From assembly GCA_964557845.1 (NCBI GenBank), contig CAZLBV010000215.1, forward strand, positions 3,582 to 67,581: DNA of 64,000 nucleotides, in the 5' to 3' direction. The notes under the pieces were generated by a model that saw only the letters and a list, made by a program, of their open reading frames with translations, did no database searches and had not been told where the DNA came from. This document shows, one piece after another, positions 9,618 through 57,366 of this stretch (within the stretch, counting starts at the first letter, position 1; every line of letters starts with the position of its first letter). This DNA is from an uncultured Eubacteriales bacterium. Its GTDB lineage: Bacteria > Acidobacteriota > Aminicenantia > Aminicenantales > Aminicenantaceae. Position numbers and translations under genes: made by a program.

Positions 9618-9812
9618 TTGAGAAAAAGATTTATATTAAGTCAAATACAGGTCATATCTTGACTTGTTAGAAATGGGATTCTATACTTGCGTGTATTCCA
9701 CGACGTGTAATTAATGTGGGAGAAGATGAATTAGGATAGATCAAAACTGAAATATCATGTTGAAAATATATTATTTCAGGATTTCTTTTCGTCTCGTCAA
9801 GGAGATTAATAA

Positions 9813-11878: not shown

Positions 11879-11890
11879 AGGGCTGCGATC

Positions 11891-13140: not shown

Positions 13141-13566
13141 ATGAAAAAATTTTGGCGCTGTCATGTGTGCAATGACATTCATTATGGAGTAAGGCCGCCT
13201 GAGATCTGCCCGACCTGTATGGTAAAAGATGCTTATGTTGAAATATCTTCCCAGGAAGCGAAAAAGATAATAGGCCCGGCTGAAACAACTTTAGACAAGG
13301 GGAAATTCAGGGCTGCTATAGAACAGCTTTCTGAAAAAAGAGAATTCCAAGTCAATCCCGACAATGAAAAGGTTACTCAACTGATTGAAGGAGTCTTTAG
13401 TAATGAGAAAAATCAAGAATTAAAATATTGTCCCTGCAGAATGATCGAAAAGGATTTTGAAAAGGATCTTCAGTTGATCTGCCCGTGCAATTTTCTTATC
13501 CATGAAACCTATAAAAATAAAGATGAGGGGGAATGCTGGTGTGGCTTATTTAAAAAAAGGAGTTAA
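13141..13566 (+). CDS. ferredoxin:disulfide reductase-like protein: rubredoxin-like domain fused to a ferredoxin-thioredoxin-reductase catalytic-subunit-like domain
   Basis: 141 aa. The N-terminus is a rubredoxin-like zinc ribbon (WRCHVCNDIHYG...EICPTC). The C-terminus carries FTR catalytic-chain cysteine pairs (YCPCR...ICPC...ECWCGLF), with Trp where FTR has His in the CHC motif. Confidence 0.65.
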   Translation: MKKFWRCHVCNDIHYGVRPPEICPTCMVKDAYVEISSQEAKKIIGPAETTLDKGKFRAAIEQLSEKREFQVNPDNEKVTQLIEGVFSNEKNQELKYCPCRMIEKDFEKDLQLICPCNFLIHETYKNKDEGECWCGLFKKRS

Positions 13567-28059: not shown

Positions 28060-28629
28060 TTATTCAATGACTGTAAATTCCCACGCACAATAGACATCCG
28101 GAGGATGAGGATCAGGAGGGCAGGTTATACATCTGGTCTGTATTCTGGGATCGATGGTGCGGGCAAAACCGCTGTACTCAACGACCCCTACAGGCTTGCA
28201 GGGAAAATCCGGTAATCCCTTTCTTTTCCTAGCATCCTGGACCCTGCACTTGTTCATCCGGAAAACACAACTGTTTTTCTGGATGTCGATGACCTCCTGG
28301 ACGTTGATATGGGCATAGAGCCTGAATTTTAAAGCTTGAATTAAAGCAGGTATACCACCCCCTGGCTGGATATTAAGACGATTCATGATCCTTTTGGCTT
28401 CAATGACGGTAAAATCCTCCCAGGCTGTTTTGTCCAACTCCATCGCTGTTTCCATCCCGAATTTTTTTTCTGCAGCCTGAAACCATAATCCGTCATGGGC
28501 CAACCAGTTTTTAGCGGCGTCTTTAAGAAGTTCCCTTAATTCCTCCTTGGACATATCTTGGATTTCTTTCATTATTTCTCCTATGACCTGATTTTTATTG
28601 TTTACAGAAGTTCTTTCAGACCGGTTCAT
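28060..28629 (-). CDS. hypothetical cysteine-rich protein, co-transcribed with a radical SAM gene
   Basis: 189-aa ORF whose start overlaps the radical SAM gene end by 14 nt. The C-terminus is Cys/Pro-rich (CRVQDARKRKGLPDFPCKPVG...RCITCPPDPHPPDVYCAWEF). I recognise no family. Confidence 0.35.
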   Translation of the reverse strand: MNRSERTSVNNKNQVIGEIMKEIQDMSKEELRELLKDAAKNWLAHDGLWFQAAEKKFGMETAMELDKTAWEDFTVIEAKRIMNRLNIQPGGGIPALIQALKFRLYAHINVQEVIDIQKNSCVFRMNKCRVQDARKRKGLPDFPCKPVGVVEYSGFARTIDPRIQTRCITCPPDPHPPDVYCAWEFTVIE

Positions 28630-29563
28630 AATATTTTAGATTTTTATATATAACGATTTTTATTTTATTTTCTTGCAGGAGAGAATTCAATTCTTTTAGG
28701 ACCGCGTTTCTATGTTTCCCAAGGGATGAGGAAATATCTTCAAGAGTGACAGGCCTCCTTTTTACCATATCAAGAATTTGGCTGGCTATATTTTCCTGAT
28801 AAGGAGGCTGGTCTCCACCCTGGAATTCTGCGATGATTTCTGCTTTATCACCGAGAAATTTTTGAATTTCTTCTAACCGTGACCTGCTTATCGGTTGAGC
28901 TGTAATTTCAGCAGGTGGGCGAACTACCGTATTGAGATGGATTTTGTCCGGGCGGATTTTTTCTATGACTTTTTTTAATTTTAACAGATGAGTATGTGAG
29001 TCATTGACATTTTTGACAAAAAGGATCTCGAGCCATATTTTACCATTGTATTGCTTTCTGAATTCAATCAAACCTGATAAGATCTCTTTAAGTTCAAGTT
29101 TAGGGTGAGGGCGGTTAATCTGTAAAAATACATCCTGAGAGGCCGCATCCAATGAAGGAACGACCAGGTCTGCCTTCTTTAAGTCCTGCCTGACTTCTTC
29201 TTGAGAAAGGAGAGTACTGTTAGTTAAAACAGCAACCGGAATATCAGTAAATGCTTTGATATTAGTTATCAATTCTCCAATTATTTTATTGAGAGTGGGT
29301 TCTCCTGAACCTGAAAAAGTAATGTAGTCGATATGGTGCCCAGTTTCGATGGCTTTCTTTATGCCAGCTAGAATTTCTTTTATAGAAAAGTATTTTTTTC
29401 TTTCTACAGTCTTTTTAGGGGTCGTCCCCAACTGGCAGTAGATGCAATCCAAACTGCAGGTTTTATATGGCAAGATATCTATTCCTAAAGAATAACCTAA
29501 CCTGCGTGAAGGTACTGGTCCATAAATGAATGTCTTTAGGTTTTTATTTTTAATTTTAGTCAC
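28616..29563 (-). CDS. radical SAM enzyme (CxxxCxxC) of a subfamily with an N-terminal YGPVPSRRLG motif and a C-terminal winged-helix-like tail; function unknown
   Basis: 315 aa with the radical SAM cluster motif CSLDCIYC after GPVPSRRLGYSLGIDI. A paralog with the same architecture lies at 59993-60943. Confidence 0.8.
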   Translation of the reverse strand: MTKIKNKNLKTFIYGPVPSRRLGYSLGIDILPYKTCSLDCIYCQLGTTPKKTVERKKYFSIKEILAGIKKAIETGHHIDYITFSGSGEPTLNKIIGELITNIKAFTDIPVAVLTNSTLLSQEEVRQDLKKADLVVPSLDAASQDVFLQINRPHPKLELKEILSGLIEFRKQYNGKIWLEILFVKNVNDSHTHLLKLKKVIEKIRPDKIHLNTVVRPPAEITAQPISRSRLEEIQKFLGDKAEIIAEFQGGDQPPYQENIASQILDMVKRRPVTLEDISSSLGKHRNAVLKELNSLLQENKIKIVIYKNLKYYEPV

Positions 29564-29645: not shown

Positions 29646-30116
29646 TTAAATTTTTCTGTATTGTTTTTTCCAGGGTGATTTCTTTTGATAGAGATAATCA
29701 GCCAAAGCCCGGCGTAGTGTTTCCGATGCCAATTGAGCGCAGTGGATGTTTTCTTCGGGAAGCCCTCCCAGCTCTTTCAAAATAACATCGGCACTGATGG
29801 AGGCAAGAGCCTGGTTGAAGGTTTTGTCTCTTGAGAGTTCCGAAACCACACTTCCACAAGCCAAAGTAGCTCCACAACCATCGGTAAGAAAAGTGCATTT
29901 GCTTATTCTGTCATCCTGAAATTTTAAAAAAATTTCCATAGTATCTCCACAGGATCCAGTTACCTTTGCATATCCATCAGGCTGCTCCAGTTTTCCCAGA
30001 TTAAGAGGATGGAGCCACAGATTGATAACCTTATCGGTATAGATCTGTCTGGCTTGCTCCATGATCTGCTCCTGAAGCTGCTGCGTTATTTTTTCTAATT
30101 CCTCGTCTTTATCCAT
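29646..30116 (-). CDS. IscU/NifU-N-like Fe-S cluster scaffold protein
   Basis: 156 aa with the three scaffold cysteines in conserved contexts: GSCGDTMEIFL, TDGCGATLACGS and HCAQLASE. Confidence 0.8.
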   Translation of the reverse strand: MDKDEELEKITQQLQEQIMEQARQIYTDKVINLWLHPLNLGKLEQPDGYAKVTGSCGDTMEIFLKFQDDRISKCTFLTDGCGATLACGSVVSELSRDKTFNQALASISADVILKELGGLPEENIHCAQLASETLRRALADYLYQKKSPWKKQYRKI

Positions 30117-30180: not shown

Positions 30181-30283
30181 GGCGAGTCGATCTTGGCCCA
30201 TTTACTGCATTGCGGCGGGTTCGCAGTGGACAATCACAGCTTCACCCGCTGGCGCCTTGTAACTGGACCAATCTCGACTCGTG
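30181..30283. ncRNA. candidate structured RNA or small palindromic element: ~103-nt GC-rich segment closed by an ~18-bp imperfect terminal stem
   Basis: GGCGAGTCGATCTTGGCC (30181-30198) is the reverse complement of GGACCAATCTCGACTCG (30265-30281), with 2 mismatches and 1 wobble. The interior contains nested complementarity (GCGGCGGG / CCCGCTGGCGC). GC is about 58% against an AT-rich surround. It sits between the IscU-like start (30116) and the DUF4405-like gene end (30409) and is preceded by an AT-rich 9-bp-stem hairpin at 30134-30180. Confidence 0.3.
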
Positions 30284-30408
30284 AATAATCCAAATTAATT
30301 TAATTCATCATTATAACAAAAAATAGTGTTTTTATTGAAATGGAATTACAAATAGTTCTAGATGAATATTTCCCATTTAATGGATATATTTCCATCAGTT
30401 TGGTTCAC

Positions 30409-31281
30409 TTACTTTTTTTGTCTCTTTTGCAACTCAGCGGTTATAAAATCCCTCAATTCTTGTATAGAGAATCCATAACTCTTTCTTAATCTGCCCAGGT
30501 GGTCAAACTCTGAAACATTTGCAGGCAATCCCATTCCCTGGATAATGGTTTTTGTGTTTATTCCGGTTTTTAATTCTATGTCTCTTAAACACATCTGCCC
30601 TGTGATCACAATGCCGGATGTATCTTCCTCCAGCCTTCCATGAACGAGCTTATCTTCATGTTCCTGGGTTTCTTCGTGAAGGTGGACAGCTGGATAACTC
30701 TCAGATTTCACCTCAATTTCTTTTTCTGGTTTCTGCTGGTTATTGGCTGCTCCAGATAAAGACTTTTCCGAGCTCTTACCAGGTACGGATGCTTTTTTTT
30801 GCTGTTCGATAATCGAAGGGGCAGGAGAAGGCACCGGGGCAGGGATCGAAGTCGCAGCCGGCACACTTTGCTCAACAATTCTGGACCTCCCAAATTCTCC
30901 GTTTCTTCTTCCATAGTTGGAATACAAAGGAGAGTCCTTAGGCATGAATGCCCAGATAAAAAAAATGGTAAAAAAAGCAGCTGCTACGGTAAGGCCGATA
31001 ATTAGAGGGGCCTTATTTTTAAATAGACGGCGTGACTGCGCTTTAATCCAGCTCCATTCAAGGATCAGATGAATAATGACTAATGCTGTGAATGCTAGGG
31101 ACAAAATTAGATGAATGTCGCCCCATTGATGCCGGTGCAGACCTAAAAAATATTTTCCCTGGTCATTGACTGTCGGTCCTTCTGCGAGAAAGAAAGCCAT
31201 CAGTATTCCTATAACTGCTATTCCAAAAAGAAATATGAAAAGAAAAGTATCTACCAGATATTTCCATATGTTTTTATTCAT
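30409..31281 (-). CDS. membrane protein with an N-terminal DUF4405-like His-rich transmembrane domain and a C-terminal soluble domain
   Basis: 290 aa with three TM helices and conserved histidines (HRHQWGDIHLILSLAFTALVIIHLILEW), typical of DUF4405 putative haem/cytochrome-b-like modules. A Pro/Ser-rich linker follows, then a C-terminal domain of unknown family. Confidence 0.45.
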   Translation of the reverse strand: MNKNIWKYLVDTFLFIFLFGIAVIGILMAFFLAEGPTVNDQGKYFLGLHRHQWGDIHLILSLAFTALVIIHLILEWSWIKAQSRRLFKNKAPLIIGLTVAAAFFTIFFIWAFMPKDSPLYSNYGRRNGEFGRSRIVEQSVPAATSIPAPVPSPAPSIIEQQKKASVPGKSSEKSLSGAANNQQKPEKEIEVKSESYPAVHLHEETQEHEDKLVHGRLEEDTSGIVITGQMCLRDIELKTGINTKTIIQGMGLPANVSEFDHLGRLRKSYGFSIQELRDFITAELQKRQKK

Positions 31282-31313: not shown

Positions 31314-32186
31314 TTAATTATCCACATTTTTTAGATTAAGCCAAATTTCTTTTATCTCATTGGCAAGGTCAGAATTAGGAAGTTCTGGAATAGGGATGCC
31401 TTGAGTGACAGCTTTAATCGCATCTTCTGAATAGGAGATTTTTCCTAAAATTTTGATGTTGTTTTTTTGACACCAAGTAATGATTCCGTGTGTGTTTTGC
31501 TTATTTATGTCGTATTTATTGATAATACAGGCAGTTTTGATTTTAAAATATTTGGATGTCTCGATAACTCTTTCCATATCATGGACCGCAGAAAGAGTGG
31601 GCTCAGTGACCACAACCGCTAAATCAACTCCGGAAAGAGAAGCGATGACTGGGCAGCCTATTCCGGGAGGCCCGTCGATAAGGACCCAATCCAAATTGCC
31701 CGACTCTGCGATCTCTCTGGCTTTTTCTCTAACCAGTGAAACAAGTTTTCCGGAATTTTCTTCCCCGGGATACAGCCGGGCATGAACAAAGGGGCCGTAT
31801 TTTGTTTGAGAAATATACCATTCTCCGCAAACCGCAGGTTTCATTTCGATCGCCTGTACAGGACAAGATAAGGCACAAACTCTGCATCCTTCGCATGAAA
31901 AAGGATCTATAGAAATTTTTCCTTCATCGGAAGAGTGAATGGCATCGAACCGGCATAAACTCACACAAGCACCGCAGTATGTGCATTTTTCTTCATTGTA
32001 AACGGCTTTTTCTCCGCTTGTAAATGTGTGTGTTTCTTTGATCTCAGGATGGATCATTAAATGCAGATTGGCTGCATCAACATCACAGTCAGCGAGTACT
32101 TTCTTTTCTGCAAGGGAGGCAAAGGCAGCGGTCACAATTGTTTTCCCAGTTCCGCCTTTTCCGCTGATAACAACTATTTGCTTCAC
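31314..32186 (-). CDS. MinD/ParA-superfamily P-loop ATPase with inserted 2x[4Fe-4S] ferredoxin domain (CooC-like, COG1149-type)
   Basis: 290 aa with a deviant Walker A (GKGGTGKT) and two CxxCxxCxxxCP motifs (CTYCGACVSLC, CEGCRVCALSCP) inserted in the ATPase fold. Confidence 0.75.
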   Translation of the reverse strand: MKQIVVISGKGGTGKTIVTAAFASLAEKKVLADCDVDAANLHLMIHPEIKETHTFTSGEKAVYNEEKCTYCGACVSLCRFDAIHSSDEGKISIDPFSCEGCRVCALSCPVQAIEMKPAVCGEWYISQTKYGPFVHARLYPGEENSGKLVSLVREKAREIAESGNLDWVLIDGPPGIGCPVIASLSGVDLAVVVTEPTLSAVHDMERVIETSKYFKIKTACIINKYDINKQNTHGIITWCQKNNIKILGKISYSEDAIKAVTQGIPIPELPNSDLANEIKEIWLNLKNVDN

Positions 32187-32217
32187 TTCTTTTCCTTATT
32201 TTAAATATTATCGAGAT

Positions 32218-33099
32218 TCATCTCTTGGTTAGATTGTCGGTCTGAATTTTAATCTTGTATTTTAAGCTGTCATAGAGTTCTGAGAATTTGGTCTTAAAAC
32301 TTGGATCTATATCAATCAAGGCTTCTCCTTTAGAGTAAGCTTCTGCTATTTTTCTGTCCAATGGAATTTCCATGATTAAGGGAATGTTTTCCTTCTGACA
32401 GTATTCATGAATGATCTCATCACCTGTTCTTGCCCGGTTTAAGATCACACTAAAGGGAATGCCCATTTGCCTGAGAGTATCAACTGAGAGCTTGAGATCA
32501 TTTAAACCAAAAGGAGTCGGTTCTGTGACAAGAAGGGTGTGATCGCTGCCCTTAACTGTTTCGACCATAGGACATGATGTGCCGGGTGGAACATCCAGGA
32601 TCACATCTTGTTCGTGGTCGATCATTTTTTTCATCTGCCGGATCAACGGAGGAGACATTGCCTGGCCCACATCCAATTTTCCTGATAGAAAAAATATGTT
32701 TCCGGCATGACCTGATTTGATCACTCCGATTCTTTTGCCAATTTCTTTTATTGCGTTTTCAGGACAGAAAAGTTTACATGCCCCGCAGCCATGGCAGAGT
32801 TCAGGAAAGGTAAGAACGCTTTCTTTGAGTACGGCCAAGGCATTATAAGCACAGACTTCAGCACAGCGCCTGCAGTAGGTGCATTTATTATCATCAATTT
32901 CAGGAATAGGCAGGTAAGAGATTTTTTCTTTCTCAAATTCTGCTTTTATGAAAAAATGGGCATTTGGTCCTTCTACATCACAATCTAAAAATTGCAGCTT
33001 CTGATCTGCTGAAATGGAAAGAGCTATATTTACAGCAACCGTTGTTTTACCCGTTCCTCCTTTACCGCTGGCAATGGAAAGGATCATTAAATACTCCAA
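32218..33099 (-). CDS. MinD/ParA-superfamily P-loop ATPase with inserted 2x[4Fe-4S] ferredoxin domain (paralog)
   Basis: 293 aa with GKGGTGKTT, CTYCRRCAEVC and CHGCGACKLFCP. It is the tandem paralog of the downstream gene. Confidence 0.75.
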   Translation of the reverse strand: MEYLMILSIASGKGGTGKTTVAVNIALSISADQKLQFLDCDVEGPNAHFFIKAEFEKEKISYLPIPEIDDNKCTYCRRCAEVCAYNALAVLKESVLTFPELCHGCGACKLFCPENAIKEIGKRIGVIKSGHAGNIFFLSGKLDVGQAMSPPLIRQMKKMIDHEQDVILDVPPGTSCPMVETVKGSDHTLLVTEPTPFGLNDLKLSVDTLRQMGIPFSVILNRARTGDEIIHEYCQKENIPLIMEIPLDRKIAEAYSKGEALIDIDPSFKTKFSELYDSLKYKIKIQTDNLTKR

Positions 33100-33800
33100 A
33101 CGCTTCCGGCGCCGAGTTCAAGAAAATCATCCTTATACTCTTCTTTAAAGAGAGTTCGGGCTTCTAGTCCCGAGCAATGGGTCGGCCCCACTTTTTCTAT
33201 TCCCTCTCTTTTAAATAAACGAATGATCTCTTTGATCTCTCGGTCTTCAAATCCACCTAAATGGAATCCCCCAAAGACCATATAAATATTTTTCTGGAAT
33301 TGTTTTTTAGTAAGATCGATTATGTTTGTGATCCGTGGGTGGGCGCATCCAGTTATAAGAATCAAACCTTTATTGGTTTCTAAAATCAGGGATTGCTCTT
33401 TTATCCATCCGTTTATGACGCCGGTTGTAAAGGCTCCAGGTGATAGGTTTTGAGGGCCAGTGATGTAAACCGGGCAGCTTCTGGCATCAGTAACGGCTTT
33501 TTTTATTTTATTTGGAAAAAAATCAGGAATAAATACAGTTACATCGGAGTTTACTGCCAAGAATCCCTCTAAACCCCCTGTGTGATCGAAGTGTTCATGA
33601 GAGAGAAATATTTGATCTACCATTCCAGGCGATTTTCCCAACTTGTTTATATTATCCAGCAAGATTTTATGTTTTGCCCCGGTGTCGAAGAGTATGGTTT
33701 TTTCCATTCCTTGGATCAGGCAGGAAAACCCCCAATCTGTAGCGAATTCTGTTTTATAAGCAATATTGTCATAGAGAATTGAGAAGGTTAATGGAGACAT
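33087..33800 (-). CDS. MBL-fold metallo-hydrolase
   Basis: 237 aa with the HxHxDH motif (LSHEHFDHTGG) and later His/Asp ligands (GCAHP, GGFHLGG). Confidence 0.7.
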   Translation of the reverse strand: MSPLTFSILYDNIAYKTEFATDWGFSCLIQGMEKTILFDTGAKHKILLDNINKLGKSPGMVDQIFLSHEHFDHTGGLEGFLAVNSDVTVFIPDFFPNKIKKAVTDARSCPVYITGPQNLSPGAFTTGVINGWIKEQSLILETNKGLILITGCAHPRITNIIDLTKKQFQKNIYMVFGGFHLGGFEDREIKEIIRLFKREGIEKVGPTHCSGLEARTLFKEEYKDDFLELGAGSVWSI

Positions 33801-33857
33801 CTCTTATTGGCCTTAAAATTCTGATTAGATTTAATATGATAATTATTTATTCAACTC

Positions 33858-35060
33858 TCATTCAACAACAGCTAGGGCCTGCTCCAGGTCTGCCTCAAGA
33901 TCTTCATATCCTTCACAACCCACTGAGATGCGGATCAGATCATCTGTTATCCCTGCTTCCAATTTATCTTTCCTCGAGACATTTGCATGAGTCATACTAG
34001 CCGGATGTTGGATAAGGGTTTCAATTCCTCCCAGGGAAACCGCAAGGGTACATAATTTAACTGAGTCGATGAATTTTCTACCGGCATCTAACCCGCCTTT
34101 CAAGCCAAAACTGATAAGAGCACCGAAACCACGCATTTGTTTTTTTGCCAGTTTGTGTTGGGGATGGCTTTCCAAACCAGGATAGTTTACCCAGGCTATT
34201 TTTGGATGATTCTCAAGATAAGTGGCCAGTTTCATGGCATTATCCTGGGATTTCTCTACCCTGAGTGCTAAGGATTTTACTCCCCGTAAGACCAACCATG
34301 CTTGATGCGGGTCCATGTTACCACCCAGAAGGGAGAGAGCTGACCTGAGTTTATTATAAAGTTCTTCGTTTTTGGGAATAATTATTCCGCCTACTATATC
34401 TGAATGGCCGTTGATAAATTTAGTAACACTGTGGTAAACAATATCGGCGCCCAATTCCAGGGGATTTTGAAGATGTGGGCTGGCAAAAGTATTGTCAACC
34501 ACCAGCAGAAGGCCTTTAGAATGGGCTAGCTTTGCACAAGCCTCGATATCTGAAATAATCATGGTTGGATTAGCTGGAGTCTCGATAACAATAAGTTTAG
34601 TATTTGTTTTAATAGCGGATTCAATTTTTTTTGTATCCGAGGTATCCACATAATCGAAACTGATGCCGAATTTGTACGCTAATTTTTCAACCAGGACTCG
34701 AGAAGCCCCATAAACAGAAGCTGTGCTTATCATGTGTGAATTTTGTTCTAATAGACCAAAAAGCAGTGTAGATAGAGCGGACATCCCTGATGAGGTAGCC
34801 ATGGCCCCGTAGCCCTGTTCTAAATAGGCTATATTGTCCTCCAAGGCTCTTATTGTGGGATTACCCATTCTGGTATAGATATATCCTTCTTCTTCTCCGG
34901 CAAACCGGGCTGCGCCCTGCCGGGCATTTTTAAATGCAAAGGTAGACGATTGATAAATGGGTGTCGATACACCCCCAAATACTGGGTCTGGATGTTGAGC
35001 GGCATGGATAACACTGGTATGCCTGCTTTTCATTTTAATATCAGTCACATTTTCCTCCAT
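33858..35060 (-). CDS. Cys/Met-metabolism PLP enzyme (methionine gamma-lyase / cystathionine gamma-synthase / O-acetylhomoserine sulfhydrylase family)
   Basis: 400 aa with PLP-lysine in SVTKFINGHSD and trans-sulfuration-family motifs. The real start is possibly the internal Met at ~35033 (MKSRHTSVIH). Confidence 0.8.
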   Translation of the reverse strand: MEENVTDIKMKSRHTSVIHAAQHPDPVFGGVSTPIYQSSTFAFKNARQGAARFAGEEEGYIYTRMGNPTIRALEDNIAYLEQGYGAMATSSGMSALSTLLFGLLEQNSHMISTASVYGASRVLVEKLAYKFGISFDYVDTSDTKKIESAIKTNTKLIVIETPANPTMIISDIEACAKLAHSKGLLLVVDNTFASPHLQNPLELGADIVYHSVTKFINGHSDIVGGIIIPKNEELYNKLRSALSLLGGNMDPHQAWLVLRGVKSLALRVEKSQDNAMKLATYLENHPKIAWVNYPGLESHPQHKLAKKQMRGFGALISFGLKGGLDAGRKFIDSVKLCTLAVSLGGIETLIQHPASMTHANVSRKDKLEAGITDDLIRISVGCEGYEDLEADLEQALAVVE

Positions 35061-35211
35061 AAAATTTAACTAAGCGATATTAATAAATATAATAATTTCT
35101 GGCTTAAGAGATATTATAATACCGTTTTTAATCTCTGCGGCAGGATCTTTTGTCGAAACATATTTAGAAAATTCCACCACAGTTTTGGCATTCGTATCTG
35201 CAGATAGGAAG

Positions 35212-35397
35212 CTACCTTCCCCGGATCATCTTGGAACCGCATTTAGGGCAGGTTAATTCAAAACAGGGTTTTCCAGGTTGATGAGAAATTTTGTGTCCGC
35301 ATTTAGGGCACACACATGAACCGCCTGGCCCAAGCCCCTGTCCTCCGCCTAATCCTCTACCTCCTTGCCCATTAGGATCTCCGTTCGAATTGGACAT
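35212..35397 (-). CDS. small Gly-rich zinc-ribbon protein
   Basis: 61 aa with a Gly-rich N-terminus (GQGGRGLGGGQGLGPGG) and two CPKCG knuckles (CVCPKCGH...CPKCGS). Its position inside the conserved island supports it being real. Confidence 0.45.
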   Translation of the reverse strand: MSNSNGDPNGQGGRGLGGGQGLGPGGSCVCPKCGHKISHQPGKPCFELTCPKCGSKMIRGR

Positions 35398-35412
35398 GAT
35401 TTTCTCCTCTTT

Positions 35413-35853
35413 TCAGTTATAGGCTTCCATTATCTTTTTGTCTTCATTCATGAGATAATCCAGTTCTTTTCTGAATTTATCATCCCAAAAATTAAGCTTG
35501 TTATGAATTTCAAGATATTTCAGGGGAATAGGATGGGTTCCAATAACAACAGGGACTCCGTACTGAGTTTCAATGTATTCTTTGAATTGAAATAGATAGG
35601 GACAAGGTGGGTACCCGACCACCAAACCAGTGGCCAGATGAATGACTTCTGCGCCATTTTTTATCATTTCTTCTGGAACATATTCAATATTCCCCCCCGG
35701 GCATCCCCCGCAATAGGAATATCCTACGACCTCTATTTCTTCATCTTTTGGATAACGAGCAAAACCTCCGGTCCGTTCCCGGACGGAACGGAAGCATTTC
35801 CCGCCACCGCATAACTGATAGCGTCCACATATTATGATGCCGATTTTTTTCAT
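35413..35853 (-). CDS. CGGC-domain protein
   Basis: 146 aa with MKKIGIIICGRY...CGGGKC and YCGGCPGG. I recall these as the CGGC-domain family signature. Confidence 0.55.
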   Translation of the reverse strand: MKKIGIIICGRYQLCGGGKCFRSVRERTGGFARYPKDEEIEVVGYSYCGGCPGGNIEYVPEEMIKNGAEVIHLATGLVVGYPPCPYLFQFKEYIETQYGVPVVIGTHPIPLKYLEIHNKLNFWDDKFRKELDYLMNEDKKIMEAYN

Positions 35854-35874: not shown

Positions 35875-36681
35875 TTAATTTTTTCCGGTAGATTCCAAGA
35901 TCCTTTCAGCGACTTCGAGAAAAGCCTTGGCTGTTTCTGACTCGGCAGTATCTTCTAAGAACGATTTGCCAATGTCGCCGAGGATTACGATCTGAGGATC
36001 AATGGGAATTCTTCCCAGAAAAGGAACACCCAATTCGCCAGCGGCTGTTTCGCCTCCGCCCTGTTTAAAAAGGTCGATCTTTTTACCACAATGGGGGCAG
36101 GTCAATCCGCTCATGTTTTCTATGATTCCATACACCTGTAAATTCAATTTGCGGGCAAAGGCGACTGCCTTTCTTGAATCCATAAGAGAAACCTCTTGTG
36201 GGGTTGTAACCACAACTGCGCCGCTAGCAGGAATCAACTGGGCTACTGAAAGAGGTTCATCTCCTGTGCCTGGAGGCGAGTCGATAATCAGCCAATCAAG
36301 GTTTCCCCAATCAACGTCTCCAAGAAACTGCTGGATGGCTTTCATCTTCATAGGCCCCCGCCAAATTACGGGGAGATCAGGGCTTTCGAGTAAAAAAGCC
36401 ATAGATACGAGCTTTAAATTCTTATCCACCTGAACAGGTTTAATTCCGTTAGGTGAAACATCAAGCCGTTTCGTCTCAACGCCCAGCATTTTTGCCAGGT
36501 TGGGCCCATGAATATCTACGTCTAATAATCCAACTTCTAATCCTTTTTTTTCAAAGGCATAAGCGAGGTTGGCAGCTACTGTGCTTTTCCCAACTCCTCC
36601 TTTTCCACTGAAAACAAGAAGTCGGTTTTTGATTTTTTCTAAAGCTTTCTTGATTTTTTCTGATTCATTTTCGTTTGGCAT
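35875..36681 (-). CDS. Mrp/NBP35/ApbC-family Fe-S cluster carrier ATPase
   Basis: 268 aa with Walker [18 protein letters not shown] and the conserved CPHCG cluster-binding motif. Its ATG overlaps the stop of the upstream NifX-like gene (ATGA-type overlap at 36679-36683). Confidence 0.85.
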
Positions 36682-37400
36682 TATTCTTCTCTTTCCATGA
36701 AGTTTTCAAGGACATCTTTTACCTTTCCTGAGACTCCTGTGATCATTTTAATTCCGGATTCCTGCAACACTTTATCTGCATTGGGTCCAAAGTCTCCGGT
36801 CATAACAAGTGATGGATTTTTTTCGGCAATAAATTGGGCTGCTTTAATTCCAGCGCCATGAGCAGTATCTATATATGGATTGGAGATCGCTTCAACCTGA
36901 TCTGAACCAGGTGTCAAAAATAAGAAATATTGGGCTCTTCCGAATTTCGGATCAACCTCGGAATCAATGGTGTTTCCCAGTGCAGTAATACATATCTTTG
37001 TACGGGTATCATGAGACAGGGATTGATGTTCGTGATGTTTAGGATGTCCTTGATTCATATGGCGTTCGCTCCCGTGATCGCAAAGGTCTTCTCCAGGTTT
37101 CAGTTGGCCTAGCCTATATTTTTCGATAACTTCGTCGATCGGGCCTTGGACACCTATGATCGTTTGAATATTCTTTTTTCTAAACAATTCCTGGGCACGG
37201 GGGCCCATCCCACCGGTAATGATGAGATTGACCCCTCGCGCACTTAAAAATTCTGGTAGAAACCCTGGTTGGTGACCCGGATTATCAATTTCTTCTTTTT
37301 GGGAGATCCGGTTATCTTCTATGTCAACTATTGTATACTTCGAACACCGCCCAAAATGGGCGGCAACAAAACCATTCTCTGTAGAGACTGCAATTTTCAT
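36681..37400 (-). CDS. tandem fusion of two dinitrogenase FeMo-cofactor-binding (NifX/NafY/NifB-C-like) domains joined by a His-rich linker
   Basis: 239 aa. Domain 1 starts [29 protein letters not shown]. The His-rich linker reads [18 protein letters not shown]. Domain 2 starts [27 protein letters not shown]. Confidence 0.7.
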
Positions 37401-37460: not shown

Positions 37461-37805
37461 TTATTTTGCTTTTTCTTCTTTTTCAATTTTACTGATTCTT
37501 TCTGAGAGATCTTTTAGCTCCTTTTCCATTAGGTCTTTTTCCTGTTTCAAATATCCGAGTTCTTCTTCTTGTGACATCGAAGGGGCACCTGCTCCATAGG
37601 GGTACCCTGGATAACCATAACCATAGCCATAAGGATTATATCCTCCCATTGGGTATCCCCAACCGTAACCTCTTCCGTATCCGCGTCCAAATCCGTATGA
37701 CATATAACCCGGGTAAGTATATCCTGCGCAAAATCCTCTTGCACGGCCTGTCATAGATCCGAAGCCCCAAGGTCCTGTTCTATCGCCTCCTGGCATTTTC
37801 TTCAC
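37461..37805 (-). CDS. small Gly/Tyr-rich low-complexity protein with a C-terminal coiled coil (DUF5320-like)
   Basis: 114 aa. MPGGDRTGPWGFGSMTGRARGFCAGY is followed by GYG/YGY low-complexity repeats and then EEELGYLKQEKDLMEKELKDLSERISKIEKE. This matches my recollection of the DUF5320 architecture, which is commonly adjacent to NifX-like/Mrp genes. Confidence 0.5.
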   Translation of the reverse strand: MKKMPGGDRTGPWGFGSMTGRARGFCAGYTYPGYMSYGFGRGYGRGYGWGYPMGGYNPYGYGYGYPGYPYGAGAPSMSQEEELGYLKQEKDLMEKELKDLSERISKIEKEEKAK

Positions 37806-37810: not shown

Positions 37811-38257
37811 TTATTGGCAGTTTTTACATAGACCGATAAATTCAATATTATGGTCCAATATCTTAAAAGAAAATTTAGCTTCCAATTTTTTTTCTGCTTT
37901 ATTGATAAATTCTAATTCTTCTTCAACGAATTCTCTGTAATCAATTATTTTGCCGCAGTTGGAACAGATCAAATGGTGATGATGATCAGATTTTTTTCCT
38001 GATCTGAATTCATATCTATTCTGTCCATCACCGATAGAAATTGTTTGTATCATTCCTGTTCGAGACAGTAAATCTAGTGTCCGGTATACTGTGGTAAGCC
38101 CCAGGCCAGGATAGATTTTTATCAATTCGCTATAGATGTCCTTGGCACTTAAATGCTTATTTGTCCGGATGAGCAGATCTACGATCGCCTGACGGGGTGC
38201 TGTCCACCTGCATACCTGTCCTCTGAACCGATGATGCCATTTGTTTGCTTTATACAA
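37811..38257 (-). CDS. fur: Fur-family metalloregulator (Fur/Zur/PerR)
   Basis: 148 aa with an N-terminal winged helix, HHHHLIC-x-CG and a C-terminal CxxC (LCKNCQ). Confidence 0.8.
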   Translation of the reverse strand: MYKANKWHHRFRGQVCRWTAPRQAIVDLLIRTNKHLSAKDIYSELIKIYPGLGLTTVYRTLDLLSRTGMIQTISIGDGQNRYEFRSGKKSDHHHHLICSNCGKIIDYREFVEEELEFINKAEKKLEAKFSFKILDHNIEFIGLCKNCQ

Positions 38258-38272: not shown

Positions 38273-38294
38273 TGATAATGAAAACCATTATCAT
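38273..38294. promoter_or_regulatory. Fur box-like operator (TGATAATGAAAACCATTATCAT) in the fur/queF divergent promoter region
   Basis: About 16 of 19 positions match the classical GATAATGATAATCATTATC palindrome. It lies 16-37 nt upstream of the fur start codon (38257, minus strand). Confidence 0.55.
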
Positions 38295-47217: not shown

Positions 47218-47751
47218 TCACATTATCAATATGAATTATTATGGATTACTTATAAAAAATATTATATTAGCAATTTTAGGTATTTTTCACAATTCTTGTC
47301 AACCAAATGTCAAACAAAGTCCCTGCGTTGTCATGCTTTGTTTTGTCTTATTTTGTCAATTTTTTGATCGGTGGATGCATGATTTTAATTTAGTTAATGA
47401 ATAATGCTTTTTTTAGGTATCCTACAAATACTTTAAAAAATTTATACATGGAAGAATTTCAGGGATTTGGCTTCAATAGAAAGCCTGGCAAGTACTGCAA
47501 GTGTAGCAAAACGCAGCAATGTTCCACCAAGCATAGAAATACTGCTCCATTTAACTCCGGAGATGGTTTTAGATTTCAGATCAACGGCCATTATAGTATT
47601 AGATGAGTGTTTCCGTATATTGCTGGTGATCGAGAAGCATGGCTGTTAATAATAACAATGGTGTTTAAAAATCCTTCTGGATTATATTTCAGTTGAAAGA
47701 CATCCCAATTATTTAATTTATTATTATATAGGACAGGGATAATAACTCTCA

Positions 47752-48903
47752 TTATCCCTTTAATATGTCCTTAACAGCTTCAATCACTTCTTCAACAACA
47801 TCATCGGTTAACTTCGGAGAAAGAGGAATGGAGACGGTTCTCTCAGAGATCCATTCCGCGTTGGGAAAGTCACCAGATCGGTAGCCATAGACTTTTTGAT
47901 AATAAGGATGAAGATGGGGGGCGATATAGTGAACGCCGGTGCCTACATTTTTTCGGTGCATTTTATCCAGAAATTGGTCCCGGCTCATATTCATCCGCTC
48001 GATATCTAGGATTAAAGTATACAGATGATACGCATGCCGGGTGCCTGACTCTGCAGGTGCTGGTGTAAAAACAGGGAGGTCTTGAAATGCATAGTTGTAT
48101 TTTTCCCATATCTGTTTCCGTCTTTCCCAATATTTTTCAACTCTCGGTAACTGATGTATACCGAGGGCTGCCTGAATATCCATCATGTTATTCTTAAAGC
48201 CCGCACAAACAACTTGATAGTGTTTATAGCCCTCATCGCTGAAGCGTTTCCAAGCATCTTTCGACATGCCATGGAGGGCTAGAACCTTTATTTGATCAGC
48301 GTAATCCTCCTTGTTGGTGATAATCATTCCTTCTTCACCTGTAATAATGTTTTTAGTGACATAAAAACTGAAACAGCCCAGATCGCCGAAAGTTCCGGTC
48401 TTTTTTCCATGATACTCACTTTCGATGGCATGAGCGCAATCTTCGATGACTTTAAGCTTTTTTTAGCAGCAATTTCCACGATCTTATCCATTTCGCAGGG
48501 CCTGCCGGCAAAATGAACCGGGATGATGGCTTTGGTTTTAGATTAGATCTTTTTCATGATGTTGTCAGGCTCTATATTCATGGTCTGTTGGTTACAGTCG
48601 GCCAGGACAGGTTTACCTCCGGCGTGGATAACAGCATTGGCTGTGGATGCAAAGGTCACAGCTGGAATGATTATTTCGTCTCCTGGTCGAAGCCCTATGG
48701 CTAGCATGGAAAGATGGAGGGCAGCTGTGCAGGAGTTTACAGCCAGGGCAAAACAGGTCCCTTTATACTGTTGAACATCTCTTCGAATCGATGCACTTTC
48801 GGGTCGGTCCCCAACCATCCGGAACGAAGAGAGAATCAACTACTTCATCGATCTCCGCCTGTTCGATCAAAGGGCTTCCGAAAACGAGGAAATTATCGCG
48901 CAT
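47752..48903 (-). pseudogene. decayed DegT/DnrJ/EryC1/StrS-family sugar aminotransferase (ArnB/WecE-like): at least 3 frameshifts plus 1 in-frame stop
   Basis: Reverse-strand translation from ATG (complement of 48901-48903) gives MRDNFLVFGSPLIEQAEIDEVVDSL. The canonical continuation RSGWLGTDPKVHRFEEMFNS is found only in a second frame, after an extra CT in a TCTCTC repeat near 48825-48835. YKGTCFALAVNSCTAALH...PGDEIIIPAVTF...MKKI is in a third frame, after a T-run deletion. An in-frame TAA lies at the complement of 48543-48545. A further frameshift lies in a poly-A(7) tract at the complement of 48458-48464, where AAKK-SLKSS should read AAKKKLKVIEDCAHAIE. The C-terminal part (47752-48327) is intact. 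Confidence 0.75.
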
Positions 48904-53675: not shown

Positions 53676-54548
53676 ATGTTGAAAAACAATAAGACAGAAA
53701 AAAAGGTCAAAGCAGCACAAAAGCGTGAAATAACAGAGCATTTGATCTATCGGAAACTATCAAGAACAATTAAGGATGCTCATAATCGTGAGATTTTATT
53801 AAGGATCTCGGATGATGAGCTGAAGCATTACAACCTGCTCAAAGATTATACCAAACGGGAAATGAAACCTAATCGAATACAGTTATGGCTGTATTACCTT
53901 CTTTCCAAGGTCTTTGGTTTGACTTTTGGAATCAAGCTGATGGAACGGGGCGAGGAGACGGCCCAGGTTATCTATCGTGATCTGGCGAGTTCCTTTCCCA
54001 GGGCTTTTGACATTGCAAAAGAAGAAGATGAGCACGAAGAACAGCTTATCCGGACGTTTGATGAGAAGAGGCTTGATTACATAGGTTCTATGATAAGGGG
54101 ACTTAACGATGCTTTAGTGGAGCTTACCGGTGCTCTTGCCGGTTTTACCCTGGCACTTCAGGATCCCCGTCTGATCGCTATGGCAGGGCTAATTACAGGG
54201 ATTGCCGCATCCATGTCCATGGGCGGTACCGAATATTTGGCGAAAAGATACGAAAAAAGCGATCAACACCCGATAAAGTCAGGTATATATACAGGAGTAG
54301 CTTATATTTTTACTGTTCTTTTGTTAGTCCTCCCTTATATTTTATTGGGCAATATTTATATCTCGCTGGGGATTATGGTATTTGTGGCAATCGTTATTAT
54401 TATAATATTTAGTTTTTATATATCTGTGGCTAAGGATCTCTCTTTTTGGAAACGCTTTTTAGAAATGGCCGGATTGAGTCTTGGAATAGCTGCATTATCA
54501 TTTGTTATCGGTTATATCGCAAGGAAGATCTTGGGAGTGGGTCTATAA
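53676..54548 (+). CDS. membrane-bound ferritin-like / VIT1-CCC1 fusion (MbfA-like Fe/Mn exporter)
   Basis: 290 aa. The N-terminus is a ferritin/erythrin-like helix pair with ExxH-type ligands (EITEHLIY, ELKHYNLL, EEDEHEEQL). The C-terminal VIT1/CCC1 membrane domain carries MIRGLNDALVELTGALAG and ITGIAASMSMGGTEYLA. Confidence 0.7.
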   Translation: MLKNNKTEKKVKAAQKREITEHLIYRKLSRTIKDAHNREILLRISDDELKHYNLLKDYTKREMKPNRIQLWLYYLLSKVFGLTFGIKLMERGEETAQVIYRDLASSFPRAFDIAKEEDEHEEQLIRTFDEKRLDYIGSMIRGLNDALVELTGALAGFTLALQDPRLIAMAGLITGIAASMSMGGTEYLAKRYEKSDQHPIKSGIYTGVAYIFTVLLLVLPYILLGNIYISLGIMVFVAIVIIIIFSFYISVAKDLSFWKRFLEMAGLSLGIAALSFVIGYIARKILGVGL

Positions 54549-54806
54549 ATGAACTAGCCTGAACTATTCATAAAAAATGCCGATGGTAATGATGATCTTG
54601 ATAAAAAATCCAGTTTTACAGGAATTTGTCTTATTCCACTAAACTTTTCAACAAGTCCGGTAATTTTAGAAAACGACGAGTTAAGTGCATTGAAGAGGAG
54701 TTTAATACATTTTGTGAAGAGTAGAGTATAGGTAAAAATGGTATAATTCTTGATTGTATTGTCATAAGATCTAGACAAAAATGATACTCGGCATCGATTT
54801 ACAATT

Positions 54807-55370
54807 TTGGAGGTTATCATGGAACCCATAGGTCCATTGATGTGGGAGCATAGGACTATCGAACGTGCTGTTAAACTGTTGGAAAAAGAATTGGAAAAGA
54901 TCCAGAAAACAGGAAAAAGCGATCATGAATTTTTAAATATGATCGTTGATTTTTTTCGGATCTATGCTGATAGAACCCACCACGGGAAAGAAGAGGATAT
55001 TTTATTTAAGGCTCTCAATTCTAAATCTTTATCCAGAGAACACAAAAAGATCATGGATGAGTTAATAGAAGAACATAAGAAAGGAAGAAAACTGACTAAC
55101 GAGCTTAAAAAGTGGGATGAATCCCATGGGGAGGATTCATCCGAGGATATAGATAAAGTGACCGATGCATTAAAGGAGCTTCTTCAACTGTATCCTCAGC
55201 ATATCGAGAAAGAAGACAAACATTTTTTCTTCCCAATAATGGATTATTTTTCAAAACAGGAAAGAGAGGACATGCTTGAGAAATTTTATGAATTTGACAG
55301 GCAGTTGATTCATGAAAAATATAAAAAGTTGATCGATGAATGGGAAGATATTTTAAGGACCAGCGATTAA
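54807..55370 (+). CDS. hemerythrin-like (HHE cation-binding) domain protein
   Basis: 187 aa with three H/E-containing helices (WEHRTIERA, RTHHGKEEDILFKAL, EKEDKHFFFPIM) typical of the hemerythrin HHE domain. Confidence 0.7.
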   Translation: MEVIMEPIGPLMWEHRTIERAVKLLEKELEKIQKTGKSDHEFLNMIVDFFRIYADRTHHGKEEDILFKALNSKSLSREHKKIMDELIEEHKKGRKLTNELKKWDESHGEDSSEDIDKVTDALKELLQLYPQHIEKEDKHFFFPIMDYFSKQEREDMLEKFYEFDRQLIHEKYKKLIDEWEDILRTSD

Positions 55371-55382: not shown

Positions 55383-56132
55383 ATGCTGGAGCTCAGAAAT
55401 TTTAGCGTGTCTATTGGAGAAAAGGAAATTGTTCATGATGTTAATATTACCATCAAAAGTGGAGAAACTCATACGCTGTTTGGACCTAACGGCAGTGGGA
55501 AGACCACTCTTCTTATGGCTATCATGGGATTTCCCAAGTATAAAGTGAATAAAGGTTCTATTTTATTTGATGGTAAAGATATTTCAGATTTATCTTTAGA
55601 TGAGCGAGCTCGCTTAGGTATAGGAATGTCATTCCAGAGGCCCCCTGTCGTCAAGGGAGTAAAAACTCGGGATATGGTTGCAGCATCCCTTGGGGATAAA
55701 CAGGAAGAAGCCGATAAAATTATTCTCGGACTGGCTGAAAAGGCTGATCTTGTGGATTTCCTTGATAGAGAGGTTAATTACGGTTTTTCCGGAGGAGAGA
55801 TAAAACGGTCCGAGCTCCTTCAGCTTCTGGCGCAAAAACCTAAGCTAGTTTTGCTTGATGAGCCTGAATCAGGAGTCGATCTAGTAAATATAGCCTTAAT
55901 CGGCAAACTTATTGATGAACTTCTGGAAAAAAACTGCCGTATCGTCGAGAGGAAATGCAGCGGTCTTATCATTACCCATACCGGTCATATCCTTGACTTT
56001 GTCAATGCCCGTACCGGTTATGTCATGTGTGATGGGCGGATAGGCTGTGAAGGGAATCCCCTTGAAATCCTTAAGACTATTAAGGAGAAAGGTTATGAGG
56101 AATGTATCAGATGCATGGTAAGGAGAAGATGA
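55383..56132 (+). CDS. sufC: Fe-S cluster assembly ATPase SufC
   Basis: 249 aa with Walker A GPNGSGKTTL, signature FSGGEIKRSELLQLL, Walker B LVLLDEPESGVD and D-loop/H-loop ITH. Confidence 0.9.
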   Translation: MLELRNFSVSIGEKEIVHDVNITIKSGETHTLFGPNGSGKTTLLMAIMGFPKYKVNKGSILFDGKDISDLSLDERARLGIGMSFQRPPVVKGVKTRDMVAASLGDKQEEADKIILGLAEKADLVDFLDREVNYGFSGGEIKRSELLQLLAQKPKLVLLDEPESGVDLVNIALIGKLIDELLEKNCRIVERKCSGLIITHTGHILDFVNARTGYVMCDGRIGCEGNPLEILKTIKEKGYEECIRCMVRRR

Positions 56133-56133
56133 A

Positions 56134-57366
56134 ATGGCAAGAATAAAATCATCTAAATCAGACCGAAAAAAGGCAGAGGCAGCGGCTCGTAAACCTTCAG
56201 AGATAGGTGAGGATATAGATCTTGATCAATATTCAGATTCATCAGAAGAACTGAGTTATCAGGCAGATCTGACAACCTTGCCGGATAAAGATAAAGAGCG
56301 AATGTTAAAGGCTGGTATCAGTCTTGATGATGCCAGTCAAAGATCCGGAACCTTCATTCAGATGGATAATACTCCAATCCATGCAGCTATGACTCAACCC
56401 GGTGTTGAAATCATGGCAACCAGTGAAGCTCTTCAGAAACATGATTGGCTTTCGGATTACTGGTGGAAAGCTGTATCAATAGATAAAGATAAGTATACAG
56501 CTCAGGTGGAGCTTTCCGGAAGCGATGGCTATTTTATAAGGACTTTACCGGGGAGTAAGACCGAATTTCCGGTACAAGCCTGTCTGTATTTGGCCAAAAG
56601 CGGTCAGATCCAGAAAGTTCATAATATTGTTATAGCAGAGGAAAATTCAGAACTGCATATAATTACAGGTTGTACATCAGCCTCAGATAAAGACATGGGC
56701 TTACATCTAGGTGTTTCTGAATTCTATGTGAAAAAAGGAGCCAAGATCAGTTTTACCATGATTCACAGCTGGGCGCCTGAAATAGCAGTACGGCCGCGTA
56801 CAGGAATTATTGTTGAGGAGGAAGGTGTTTTCCTGAGTAATTATGTGATCATGCAGCCGGTTCATTCTGTACAGACTTATCCCAGCGCCATATGTAAAGG
56901 AAAAAATTCGACAGTAAGATTTAACAGCATCTTGATCGCTAGAGAAGGTGCTACTATGGATGTTGGATCCCGCGTTGCACTCGATGGAGAGGGTTCGCGA
57001 ACAGAGATGATATCAAGGGCCATTGCAATGGGAGGGAAAGTTATTGCCAGAGGATATATTGAAGGTAATTCACCTGGGGTTAAAGGACATTTGGAGTGCA
57101 GAGGGTTGATCTTAACCGATGGAGTCATTCATGCAATTCCTGAGCTTAAAGGAAATTTAGCAGGAATTGACCTGTCACATGAGGCTGCAGTGGGTAAGAT
57201 CGCCGAGGAAGAGGTGGAATATTTAATGGCGCGTGGTCTGACCCGGGATGAGGCAACGGCCACTATAGTAAGAGGATTTCTTAGGGTTGATATCGAAGGG
57301 CTTCCTCCAATCTTGGCTGAGGAATTAGAAAAGGCAGTAAAGGCTAGTGATACTGATGCTATGTGA
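56134..57366 (+). CDS. sufB: Fe-S cluster assembly scaffold SufB/SufD-family protein
   Basis: 410 aa with the beta-helix core typical of SufB/D (ELHIITGCTSASDKDMGLHLGVSEFYVKKGAKISFTMIHSW). Its ATG is 1 nt after the sufC stop. This is a minimal SufBC-type system. Confidence 0.8.
   Translation: MARIKSSKSDRKKAEAAARKPSEIGEDIDLDQYSDSSEELSYQADLTTLPDKDKERMLKAGISLDDASQRSGTFIQMDNTPIHAAMTQPGVEIMATSEALQKHDWLSDYWWKAVSIDKDKYTAQVELSGSDGYFIRTLPGSKTEFPVQACLYLAKSGQIQKVHNIVIAEENSELHIITGCTSASDKDMGLHLGVSEFYVKKGAKISFTMIHSWAPEIAVRPRTGIIVEEEGVFLSNYVIMQPVHSVQTYPSAICKGKNSTVRFNSILIAREGATMDVGSRVALDGEGSRTEMISRAIAMGGKVIARGYIEGNSPGVKGHLECRGLILTDGVIHAIPELKGNLAGIDLSHEAAVGKIAEEEVEYLMARGLTRDEATATIVRGFLRVDIEGLPPILAEELEKAVKASDTDAM

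Follow-up and report, generated by a model that had tools for sequence, protein, structure and literature searches.

The locus described here raises the question of where a minimal Fe-S assembly machinery obtains its sulfur. The window, that is, the whole stretch of 64,000 nucleotides analyzed from contig CAZLBV010000215.1 of an uncultured Aminicenantes bacterium, carries a gene for an IscU-like scaffold (29646-30116) and a minimal SufBC pair (55383-57366), both of which had been claimed in a preliminary description of this DNA. An island of genes for Fe-S cluster carriers in the window also contains a gene for a pyridoxal phosphate (PLP)-dependent enzyme resembling methionine gamma-lyase (MGL), followed by a gene for a protein with the metallo-beta-lactamase (MBL) fold. 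The preliminary description had placed these two genes within 33087-35060 and had regarded them as a possible sulfur-mobilisation module. Analysis with Pfam confirmed the two genes, both of which are on the minus strand:

33858..35060, minus strand: MGL-like PLP-dependent C-S lyase of the Cys/Met-metabolism family (PF01053, TIGR01328, PDB match, active-site columns)
33087..33800, minus strand: COG1237-type MBL-fold protein of 237 amino acids (PF00753 Lactamase_B, E 2.3e-11; HEHFDH motif)

We think that the lyase is most likely coupled functionally to NifX-like and DUF134/Zn-ribbon proteins, because the same lyase subfamily is encoded directly behind the genes of such proteins in other phyla. 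The evidence for this, and what it may mean for the supply of sulfide, is given below.

Family and active site of the lyase

The open reading frame (ORF) at 33858-35060 encodes 400 amino acids, and the PF01053 domain (Cys_Met_Meta_PP) spans its full length (E 3e-150, 500.5 bits; Pfam). The public gene call identical to this ORF gives a protein of 396 amino acids (P0001). The GTG at 35048 is probably the true start of the gene, because a GGAGG sequence lies a few bases upstream of it. The match of the enzyme to PF00266 (Aminotran_5) was just 32.5 bits as compared to the 500.5 bits of PF01053; that is, the enzyme is not of the class-V desulfurase family.

Among the NCBIfam models, the top match was methionine gamma-lyase (TIGR01328), the score of which (475.6 bits) was lower than the cutoff of 549.7, and none of the best 25 of the 62 matched models reached its cutoff. 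The top match in the PDB was the MGL of Citrobacter freundii, with about 57% identity. The structures of cystathionine gamma-lyase (CGL) and homocysteine desulfhydrase (7mcb, 7d7o), enzymes of the same superfamily that yield H2S from cysteine or homocysteine, were more distant from the PLP enzyme (about 294-336 bits versus 460 for MGL); we take enzymes of this type to possess Gly at position 116 and Glu at position 339. The family identity that had been proposed for the enzyme, MGL/trans-sulfuration, was thus borne out, with the MGLs as its nearest relatives by both NCBIfam and the PDB. By these comparisons the enzyme is placed in the trans-sulfuration/gamma-lyase family, nearest to the catabolic MGLs rather than to MetB, MetY or MetZ.

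In order to clarify the active site, the residue columns were read in the PLP enzyme and its 75 closest relatives, aligned with C. freundii MGL. Residues are numbered as in Pseudomonas putida MGL, and those of the window protein are given in brackets. The catalytic core is kept: the PLP-binding Lys211 (Lys214), Tyr114 (Tyr117), Asp186 (Asp189) and Tyr59/Arg61 (Tyr62/Arg64) are all present, as are Ser340 (Ser342), Arg375 (Arg377) and the MGL-type Val339 (Val341), the last of which is Val in 75/75 relatives. The enzyme shares its fold, length and core residues with the known MGLs (EC 4.4.1.11; C. freundii 3jw9 and 2rfv, P. putida 1gc0).

It differs from them in lacking Cys116, Lys240 and Asp241, in scoring below the TIGR01328 cutoff and in having NifX-like and ORP-like neighbours. 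Where MGL has the YGC motif, the window enzyme has Y117-G118-A119, that is, Cys116 is replaced by Ala; in the 75 relatives this column contains Pro in 57, Ala in 11, Ser in 4 and Val in 3, and Cys in none. Leu242-Ser243 stands in place of Lys240-Asp241. The Lys240 column of the relatives is Met in 60, Leu in 12, His in 2 and Val in 1, and the Asp241 column is variable and never Asp. The C. freundii mutants C115A (4mkk/5e4z) and C115H (5m3z) were among the PDB matches of the enzyme. The wild-type C. freundii enzyme has YGC, and the window enzyme naturally possesses the Ala that was introduced into C115A. These two mutants and C116H, which is said to retain activity against homocysteine, are laboratory mutants of true MGLs, whereas the Lys240/Asp241 loop of the PLP enzyme is remodelled as well.

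The YGC motif and the Lys240-Asp241 pair serve as filters for true methioninases, and the substitution of Cys116 with His in P. putida MGL drastically lowers the activity on methionine (PMC11568061). Enzymes of the MGL family catalyze beta- and gamma-elimination of sulfur amino acids, including beta-elimination of cysteine derivatives (PMC3848071). Because the catalytic core is intact, the PLP enzyme should perform an elimination (alpha,gamma or alpha,beta) on a sulfur amino acid, with a 2-oxo acid, NH3 and either a thiol or H2S as the products. With the loss of Cys116, Lys240 and Asp241, which adapt MGL to methionine, its substrate pocket is remodelled, and its preference may be shifted from methionine, possibly to homocysteine or cysteine. 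Which thiol would be released, methanethiol or H2S, is not readable from the sequence.

Taken comprehensively, we conclude that the enzyme represents a distinct, uncharacterised sister group of MGL among the fold-type-I C-S lyases. Our literature search found no published account of this subfamily or of its tie to ORP-like genes, and none of the PDB matches was a solved structure from inside the subfamily.

Neighbours of the lyase gene in relatives

On the minus strand, the island runs from 38257 to about 28060 in the order Fur, DUF5320, two NifX-like domains, Mrp/NBP35, CGGC, Zn-ribbon and PLP enzyme, and after the PLP gene come MBL, two MinD-ferredoxin genes, DUF4405, NifU_N, radical SAM and DUF6125, all in the same direction. 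To obtain the loci of relatives, GTDB species genomes were searched with the PLP enzyme, and the island proteins in these loci were identified by tblastn and profile searches. Similarity to the PLP enzyme brought up 17 other Aminicenantes-type loci (of which L006 duplicates L001), and the lyase gene adjoins island genes in 14 of them. Its slot in the Aminicenantes islands is constant, always after the CGGC or the Zn-ribbon gene.

The association extends beyond the Aminicenantes. A DUF134-Zn gene and/or a NifX-like gene lies directly upstream of the lyase gene, in the same orientation, in 26/64 non-Aminicenantes loci, mostly from Bacteroidales/Lentimicrobiaceae. Counted by genomes, the lyase subfamily lies just 3' of NifX-like/DUF134-Zn-ribbon genes in about 25 Bacteroidales species genomes and in an unrelated acidobacterium. 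The families of these neighbours were confirmed by Pfam. In the Bacteroidales locus L081, for example, the order is DUF134, NifX, two MinD-Fer4 genes and then the lyase. Moreover, tblastn showed homology between the Zn-ribbon protein of the Aminicenantes and one part of the Bacteroidales DUF134 proteins encoded before the lyase orthologues, namely, their C-terminal Zn-ribbon. The Zn-ribbon protein itself is Gly-rich at its N-terminus, has two CPxCG motifs after that, and seems to be the C-terminal module of DUF134-Zn-ribbon proteins in stand-alone form; its Gly-rich start may resemble the DUF5320 protein (37461-37805).

The unrelated acidobacterium is represented by the high-GC locus L028. Its region 7031-12648 contains, in this order, DUF134, a divergent Pyr_redox_2+rhodanese gene, a NifX-like gene, the lyase and the gene of a sigma-54 response regulator. 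NifX-like (9359-9745) and PLP (9998-11182) are two distinct genes, and an ORF of 602 amino acids lies elsewhere (7511-9319). As a separate observation, the Pyr_redox_2+rhodanese gene resembles those of CoA-disulfide/persulfide reductases (CoADR-rhodanese), and the presence of a sigma-54 regulator is reminiscent of how the orp operons of Desulfovibrio are controlled. A sigma-54 activator was seen in L028 only.

In another 12-13 non-Aminicenantes loci, a rubrerythrin-like gene is the sole upstream neighbour that is kept. A rubrerythrin/ferritin-like protein of 167 amino acids is conserved about 0.6-1.7 kb upstream of the lyase in Bacteroidales (L029-L078), and its gene stays by the lyase in the 12-13 genomes that lost the DUF134 and NifX genes.

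In a neighbour-joining tree of the lyases, the Aminicenantes and the Bacteroidota form separate clades. The association of the lyase with NifX/DUF134 genes is real and old, because the linkage reaches the deep branches of each clade. A lack of conserved linkage in relatives, together with clustering of the enzyme with MetB/MetY, had been named beforehand as the outcome that would speak against a sulfur-mobilising role. What we found was a conserved linkage and no clustering with MetB/MetY, and this result favours the hypothesis of such a role.

Other genes with a bearing on sulfur are also found in such islands. A DsrE-TusA-FlpD-Hdr-like block, made up of sulfur-relay and heterodisulfide-reductase-like genes, lies inside the same island in three loci (L085, 9236-16204; L012, 13301-15730; L105, 14907-17336), and L012 and L105 carry both this block and the lyase. 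Recruitment of sulfur-trafficking genes to the island does occur.

Composition and regulation of the island

The remaining features of the island and the distant SUF pair are as follows:

38273..38293, no strand assigned: Fur box TGATAAT-N7-ATTATCA, 16 nt 5' of the Fur-family gene
37811..38257, minus strand: Fur-family regulator, first gene of the island (PF01475; best NCBIfam models Fur and PerR, both under cutoff)
37461..37805, minus strand: DUF5320 protein (PF17253)
36681..37400, minus strand: two NifX-like domains (Nitro_FeMo-Co, 'Di-Nase'); C-terminal half of MrpORP, or Orp8-like (PF02579 twice; NF041136 positions 265-361)
35875..36681, minus strand: Mrp/NBP35 P-loop Fe-S carrier; N-terminal half of MrpORP (PF10609, 330 bits; NF041136, model 1-253 of 365)
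35413..35853, minus strand: CGGC-domain protein (PF08821, E 1.7e-26)
35212..35397, minus strand: Gly-rich Zn-ribbon protein of 61 amino acids, CPxCG...CPxCG, directly 5' of the PLP gene (tblastn matches; Zn-ribbon Pfam matches weak)
31314..33099, minus strand: two MinD/CbiA ATPases with an inserted 2x[4Fe-4S] ferredoxin domain, Orp3/Orp4-like (ORFs 32218-33099 and 31314-32186, both with PF01656, PF10609 and PF00037, the last twice in each)
30409..31281, minus strand: DUF4405 membrane protein (PF14358)
29646..30116, minus strand: IscU/NifU_N-type scaffold (PF01592; alignment to E. coli IscU)
28060..29563, minus strand: radical SAM protein and DUF6125, conserved downstream members of the island (Pfam, synteny)
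55383..57366, plus strand: SufC and SufB/SmsB-like pair (minimal SUF), about 20 kb off on the other strand (TIGR01978, NF052511)

Aligned with E. coli IscU, the IscU-like protein keeps all cluster ligands: the three Cys (C56, C81, C126), the Asp (D58) and the His (H125). SufC scored 196 bits with TIGR01978 and the SufB-like protein 174.9 bits with NF052511 SmsB (cutoff 650), both under cutoff.

These genes identify the island, as far as sequence comparison goes, as a variant of the ORP/MrpORP Fe-S carrier cluster of Desulfovibrio, because the Mrp and NifX-like genes together cover both halves of MrpORP and the MinD-ferredoxin pair fits the description of Orp3/Orp4. The NF041136 model of MrpORP gave 373.6 bits with the Mrp gene and 134.8 bits with the NifX-like gene, each below the 450-bit cutoff, which applies to the fused protein. 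With the cluster of D. vulgaris (DVU2103-2109) the island shares the two MinD ATPases with 2x[4Fe-4S], the NifX-like protein and Mrp/NBP35, for which MrpORP is the best model (PMC6345978). In contrast to that cluster, MrpORP is here split into two adjacent genes, and the island is headed by a Fur-family gene with a Fur box, not by a sigma-54 system. The island also adds CGGC, DUF5320, Zn-ribbon, MBL, DUF4405, IscU-like and radical SAM genes, and the ORP genes given in PMC6345978 include no C-S lyase. According to the same paper, MrpORP and the ORP proteins bind Fe-S clusters and pass them on, and can be reconstituted with Fe and sulfide, and the NifX-like protein IssA stores thioferrate.

The Fur box, TGATAATGAAAACCATTATCA, is a perfect 7-N7-7 palindrome located in the region shared with a divergent QueF gene. 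It has 2/19 mismatches to the E. coli consensus, and 0.09 such matches are expected by chance. The whole ORP-like operon may thus be iron-responsive and autoregulated. A weaker second site resembling a Fur box (47738-47756, 3/19 mismatches) is found close to where a truncated DegT-family ORF (47752-48327) begins.

From the Zn-ribbon gene through DUF4405, the intergenic gaps are at most 151 bp. Terminator-like matches numbered 9, below the 13.4 expected from shuffled sequences. Rfam matched no riboswitch or leader RNA 5' of the PLP gene; the whole window was searched at gathering thresholds, and 33700-35500 at E<=1. Because the gaps are small, terminator-like matches few and Rfam elements absent, co-transcription of the island genes is plausible.

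Between the DUF4405 and IscU-like genes lies a GC-rich hairpin of about 110 nt (about 30185-30290, minus strand; minimum free energy -51.4 kcal/mol, z -5.1), which Rfam does not match. Copies were found by nhmmer in L122, L150, L156, L135, L111, L166 and L011, at varied intergenic positions and in both orientations. We rejected this hairpin as a cis-regulatory RNA or riboswitch on account of these scattered sites and either orientation. It looks like a dispersed intergenic repeat of the Aminicenantes, because its copies vary in position and orientation.

Three further observations concern the surroundings of the island. The radical SAM gene has weak similarity to MoaA and to a tungsten-cofactor maturase, and its counterpart is the gene directly behind the lyase in L003 and in the Acidobacteria locus L022 (49% identity). 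The DUF6125 gene beside it has a weak match to ATC hydrolase (thiazoline-opening). Genes of anaerobes for oxidative stress and iron are dense around the island (window positions 2024-3199, 13141-13566 and 53676-55370; flanks L089 and L170). They encode a flavodiiron protein, rubredoxins, rubrerythrin-VIT1, hemerythrin, desulfoferrodoxin, FeoAB, NikR and a Cu-Zn-type (Sod_Cu) superoxide dismutase, and this set fits a neighbourhood of iron and redox homeostasis.

Sulfide supply and a possible role of the lyase

The absence of a cysteine desulfurase from the 64 kb had been part of the preliminary description, and our searches agree with it. No window ORF of at least 100 amino acids belonged to the Aminotran_5 family (Pfam), and tblastn with E. 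coli IscS and SufS gave no match at E<=1e-3 in the window and related loci (about 1.4 Mb). The same queries gave none at E<=1e-6 in 80 Mrp-anchored loci, and JGI contig ML8_10000347 (159,249 bp), of which the window is part, showed no class-V desulfurase in 10 kb of 5' flank or in 7.6 kb of 3' flank. IscS/SufS was found in 0/44 of the islands scored in the census described below. A literature search on Aminicenantes and desulfurase gave nothing usable. As compared to the MIS (IscS-IscU) and SMS (SmsCB) systems, the window has an IscU-type scaffold and a pair of adjacent SufC and SufB-like genes. Unlike in MIS, neither the window nor any related island locus has an IscS beside the IscU-like gene, and the SufB-like protein scores far under the SmsB cutoff (174.9 versus 650 bits). 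No lyase has been implicated in MIS or SMS.

We considered how the lyase might serve the island. Expression of the operon headed by the Fur box would produce the ORP-like Fe-S carriers and scaffolds, namely, the split MrpORP, the NifX-like protein, the Orp3/4-like MinD-ferredoxins and the IscU-like protein. In the simplest form of coupling, the lyase would eliminate a sulfur amino acid and thus free sulfide or another thiol beside these carriers, which can take up free sulfide and would be loaded from it. The lyase would then be an accessory, not obligatory, source of sulfide (or of another thiol). We propose this role tentatively, and would put its likelihood somewhat short of even. We observed to which family the enzyme belongs, its pattern of residues, the statistics of synteny and the presence of a Fur box, and we infer the substrate, the co-transcription and the hand-off of sulfide. 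A link of the lyase to the handling of metal-sulfur clusters is a plausible hypothesis.

Several points weigh against a role of the lyase as a sulfide source. In a metagenome scan anchored on the Mrp gene, in which islands were counted if they extended 3.5 kb or more downstream of Mrp, the lyase was present in 9/44 islands, in a sample biased towards relatives of the window. Locus L086 has an otherwise near-identical island and no lyase. The lyase gene is, in short, accessory and optional, and is inserted at one fixed slot between the Zn-ribbon and MBL genes. Conversely, L003 and L004 have lost the island and kept the lyase, and about 25 relatives of the lyase in other phyla are without NifX/DUF134 neighbours. 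The linkage may also reflect just two or three evolutionary events, or one transferred block. Regarding the chemistry, the MGL of Arabidopsis lacks Cys116 yet cleaves methionine, and ordinary MGL activity of the window enzyme is thus possible. For a gamma-lyase, we see no evident logic of a persulfide carrier. The desulfurase result extends to about 82 kb of this genome, on a contig of 159 kb, and, in related loci, to about 2 Mb, not to the whole genome. Finally, anaerobes of sulfidic sediments need no enzymatic source of sulfide. SMS/SufBC-minimal systems use free sulfide in vivo, and M. jannaschii has no desulfurase (PMC12192291); because SufBC-minimal systems can use free sulfide, an enzymatic sulfide donor is not required.

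The same census clarified the position of the MBL protein. MBL was present in 37/44 islands and the Zn-ribbon gene in 41/44, and the presence of MBL was independent of that of the lyase (7/2 versus 30/5; Fisher p=0.62). In the minimal islands L083 and L084 the MBL gene lies beside the NifU_N/IscU-like gene without a PLP gene, and among the lyase loci outside the Aminicenantes an MBL gene adjoining the lyase was never found. The MBL protein is a separate, near-core component of the island and not a partner of the lyase, and we rejected the two-gene PLP and MBL module on the grounds of independent presence and lack of adjacency outside the Aminicenantes. Of the sulfur-mobilisation reading in the preliminary description, what stands is the conserved linkage to the island, the gamma-lyase family and the lack of a nearby desulfurase; MBL as a partner falls away, and the lyase is reduced to an accessory. 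The MBL protein matches COG1237 structures over its full length (PDB 7dck, E 2.3e-50 over residues 5-235; also 2p4z and TM1679/3h3e; MJ0301-type) and keeps HxHxDH. We know of no established function of the bacterial COG1237 members. JGI transfers the MJ0301 name to the relatives of this protein, and a role in the methanopterin pathway is implausible in a bacterium. A literature search on 7dck, COG1237, MJ0301 and TM1679 found nothing informative.

The strongest alternative is that the lyase is an ordinary catabolic methionine/homocysteine gamma-lyase of an amino-acid fermenter, which supplies 2-oxobutyrate to energy metabolism and was placed in the island by chance or hitch-hiking. Its closest characterised relatives are the catabolic MGLs, and the genes nearby include those for IlvE, M16 peptidases and a 2-oxoacid dehydrogenase complex. 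The accessory status of the lyase, its survival after loss of the island and the relatives without NifX/DUF134 neighbours also agree with catabolism. But the insertion slot is identical across all PLP-bearing Aminicenantes islands, and orthologues adjoin NifX-like/DUF134-Zn genes in the Bacteroidota and another acidobacterium. The subfamily also lacks the YGC and KD residues that define true methioninases (PMC11568061). We regard this alternative as a serious possibility, though a doubtful one.

A second alternative is a regulatory link, in which the DUF134 (helix-turn-helix, HTH)/Zn-ribbon and NifX-like proteins would sense the status of Fe-S, sulfide or metal and control the lyase, and the lyase would adjust the pools of sulfur amino acids or of sulfide, for example in detoxification or redox defence. 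In the Bacteroidales unit of rubrerythrin-like, DUF134-Zn-ribbon, NifX-like and lyase genes, the lyase is the sole enzyme of an obvious catalytic class. DUF134 has a weak HTH_10 match, L028 adds its sigma-54 regulator, and the Aminicenantes operon is headed by the Fur-family regulator with its Fur box. Against such a link, nobody has shown DUF134 to be a transcription factor, the Aminicenantes Zn-ribbon protein is without any DUF134 part, and NifX-like domains are known as binders or carriers of clusters (PMC6345978). This explanation seems to us quite unlikely.

That the enzyme is biosynthetic and forms homocysteine or cystathionine by MetB/MetZ/MetY-like trans-sulfuration or sulfhydrylation is highly improbable: the superfamily is the same and the NCBIfam biosynthetic models score 340-420 bits, but all of these scores are under the cutoffs and under the MGL models, the enzyme has Val at the 339-equivalent position that is Glu in cystathionine gamma-synthase (CGS) and CGL, no MetA/MetX-family gene is found among the window ORFs (Pfam), and no S-adenosylmethionine (SAM) or T-box leader lies 5' of the PLP gene (Rfam).

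If the lyase serves plain amino-acid catabolism, the finding is ordinary. The role of the lyase as an accessory sulfide source would instead bear on two open questions, namely, the role of the anaerobe-specific neighbourhoods of ORP, NifX-like and DUF134 genes, and the source of sulfur for Fe-S assembly under minimal machineries. The subfamily offers an experimental handle, since it has a recognisable residue signature and a repeated adjacency in at least two phyla (Acidobacteriota and Bacteroidota). For annotation, it matters that proteins of this subfamily are labelled 'methionine gamma-lyase' in several sources despite failing the sequence criteria. A broader possibility, which we consider unlikely, is that a dedicated gamma-lyase subfamily acts as the physiological sulfide generator for NifX-like/ORP-type carriers in anaerobes from Acidobacteriota to Bacteroidota, without a desulfurase or a persulfide intermediate. 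If this were true, it would represent an enzymatic route for loading carriers of Fe-S or heterometal-sulfide clusters.

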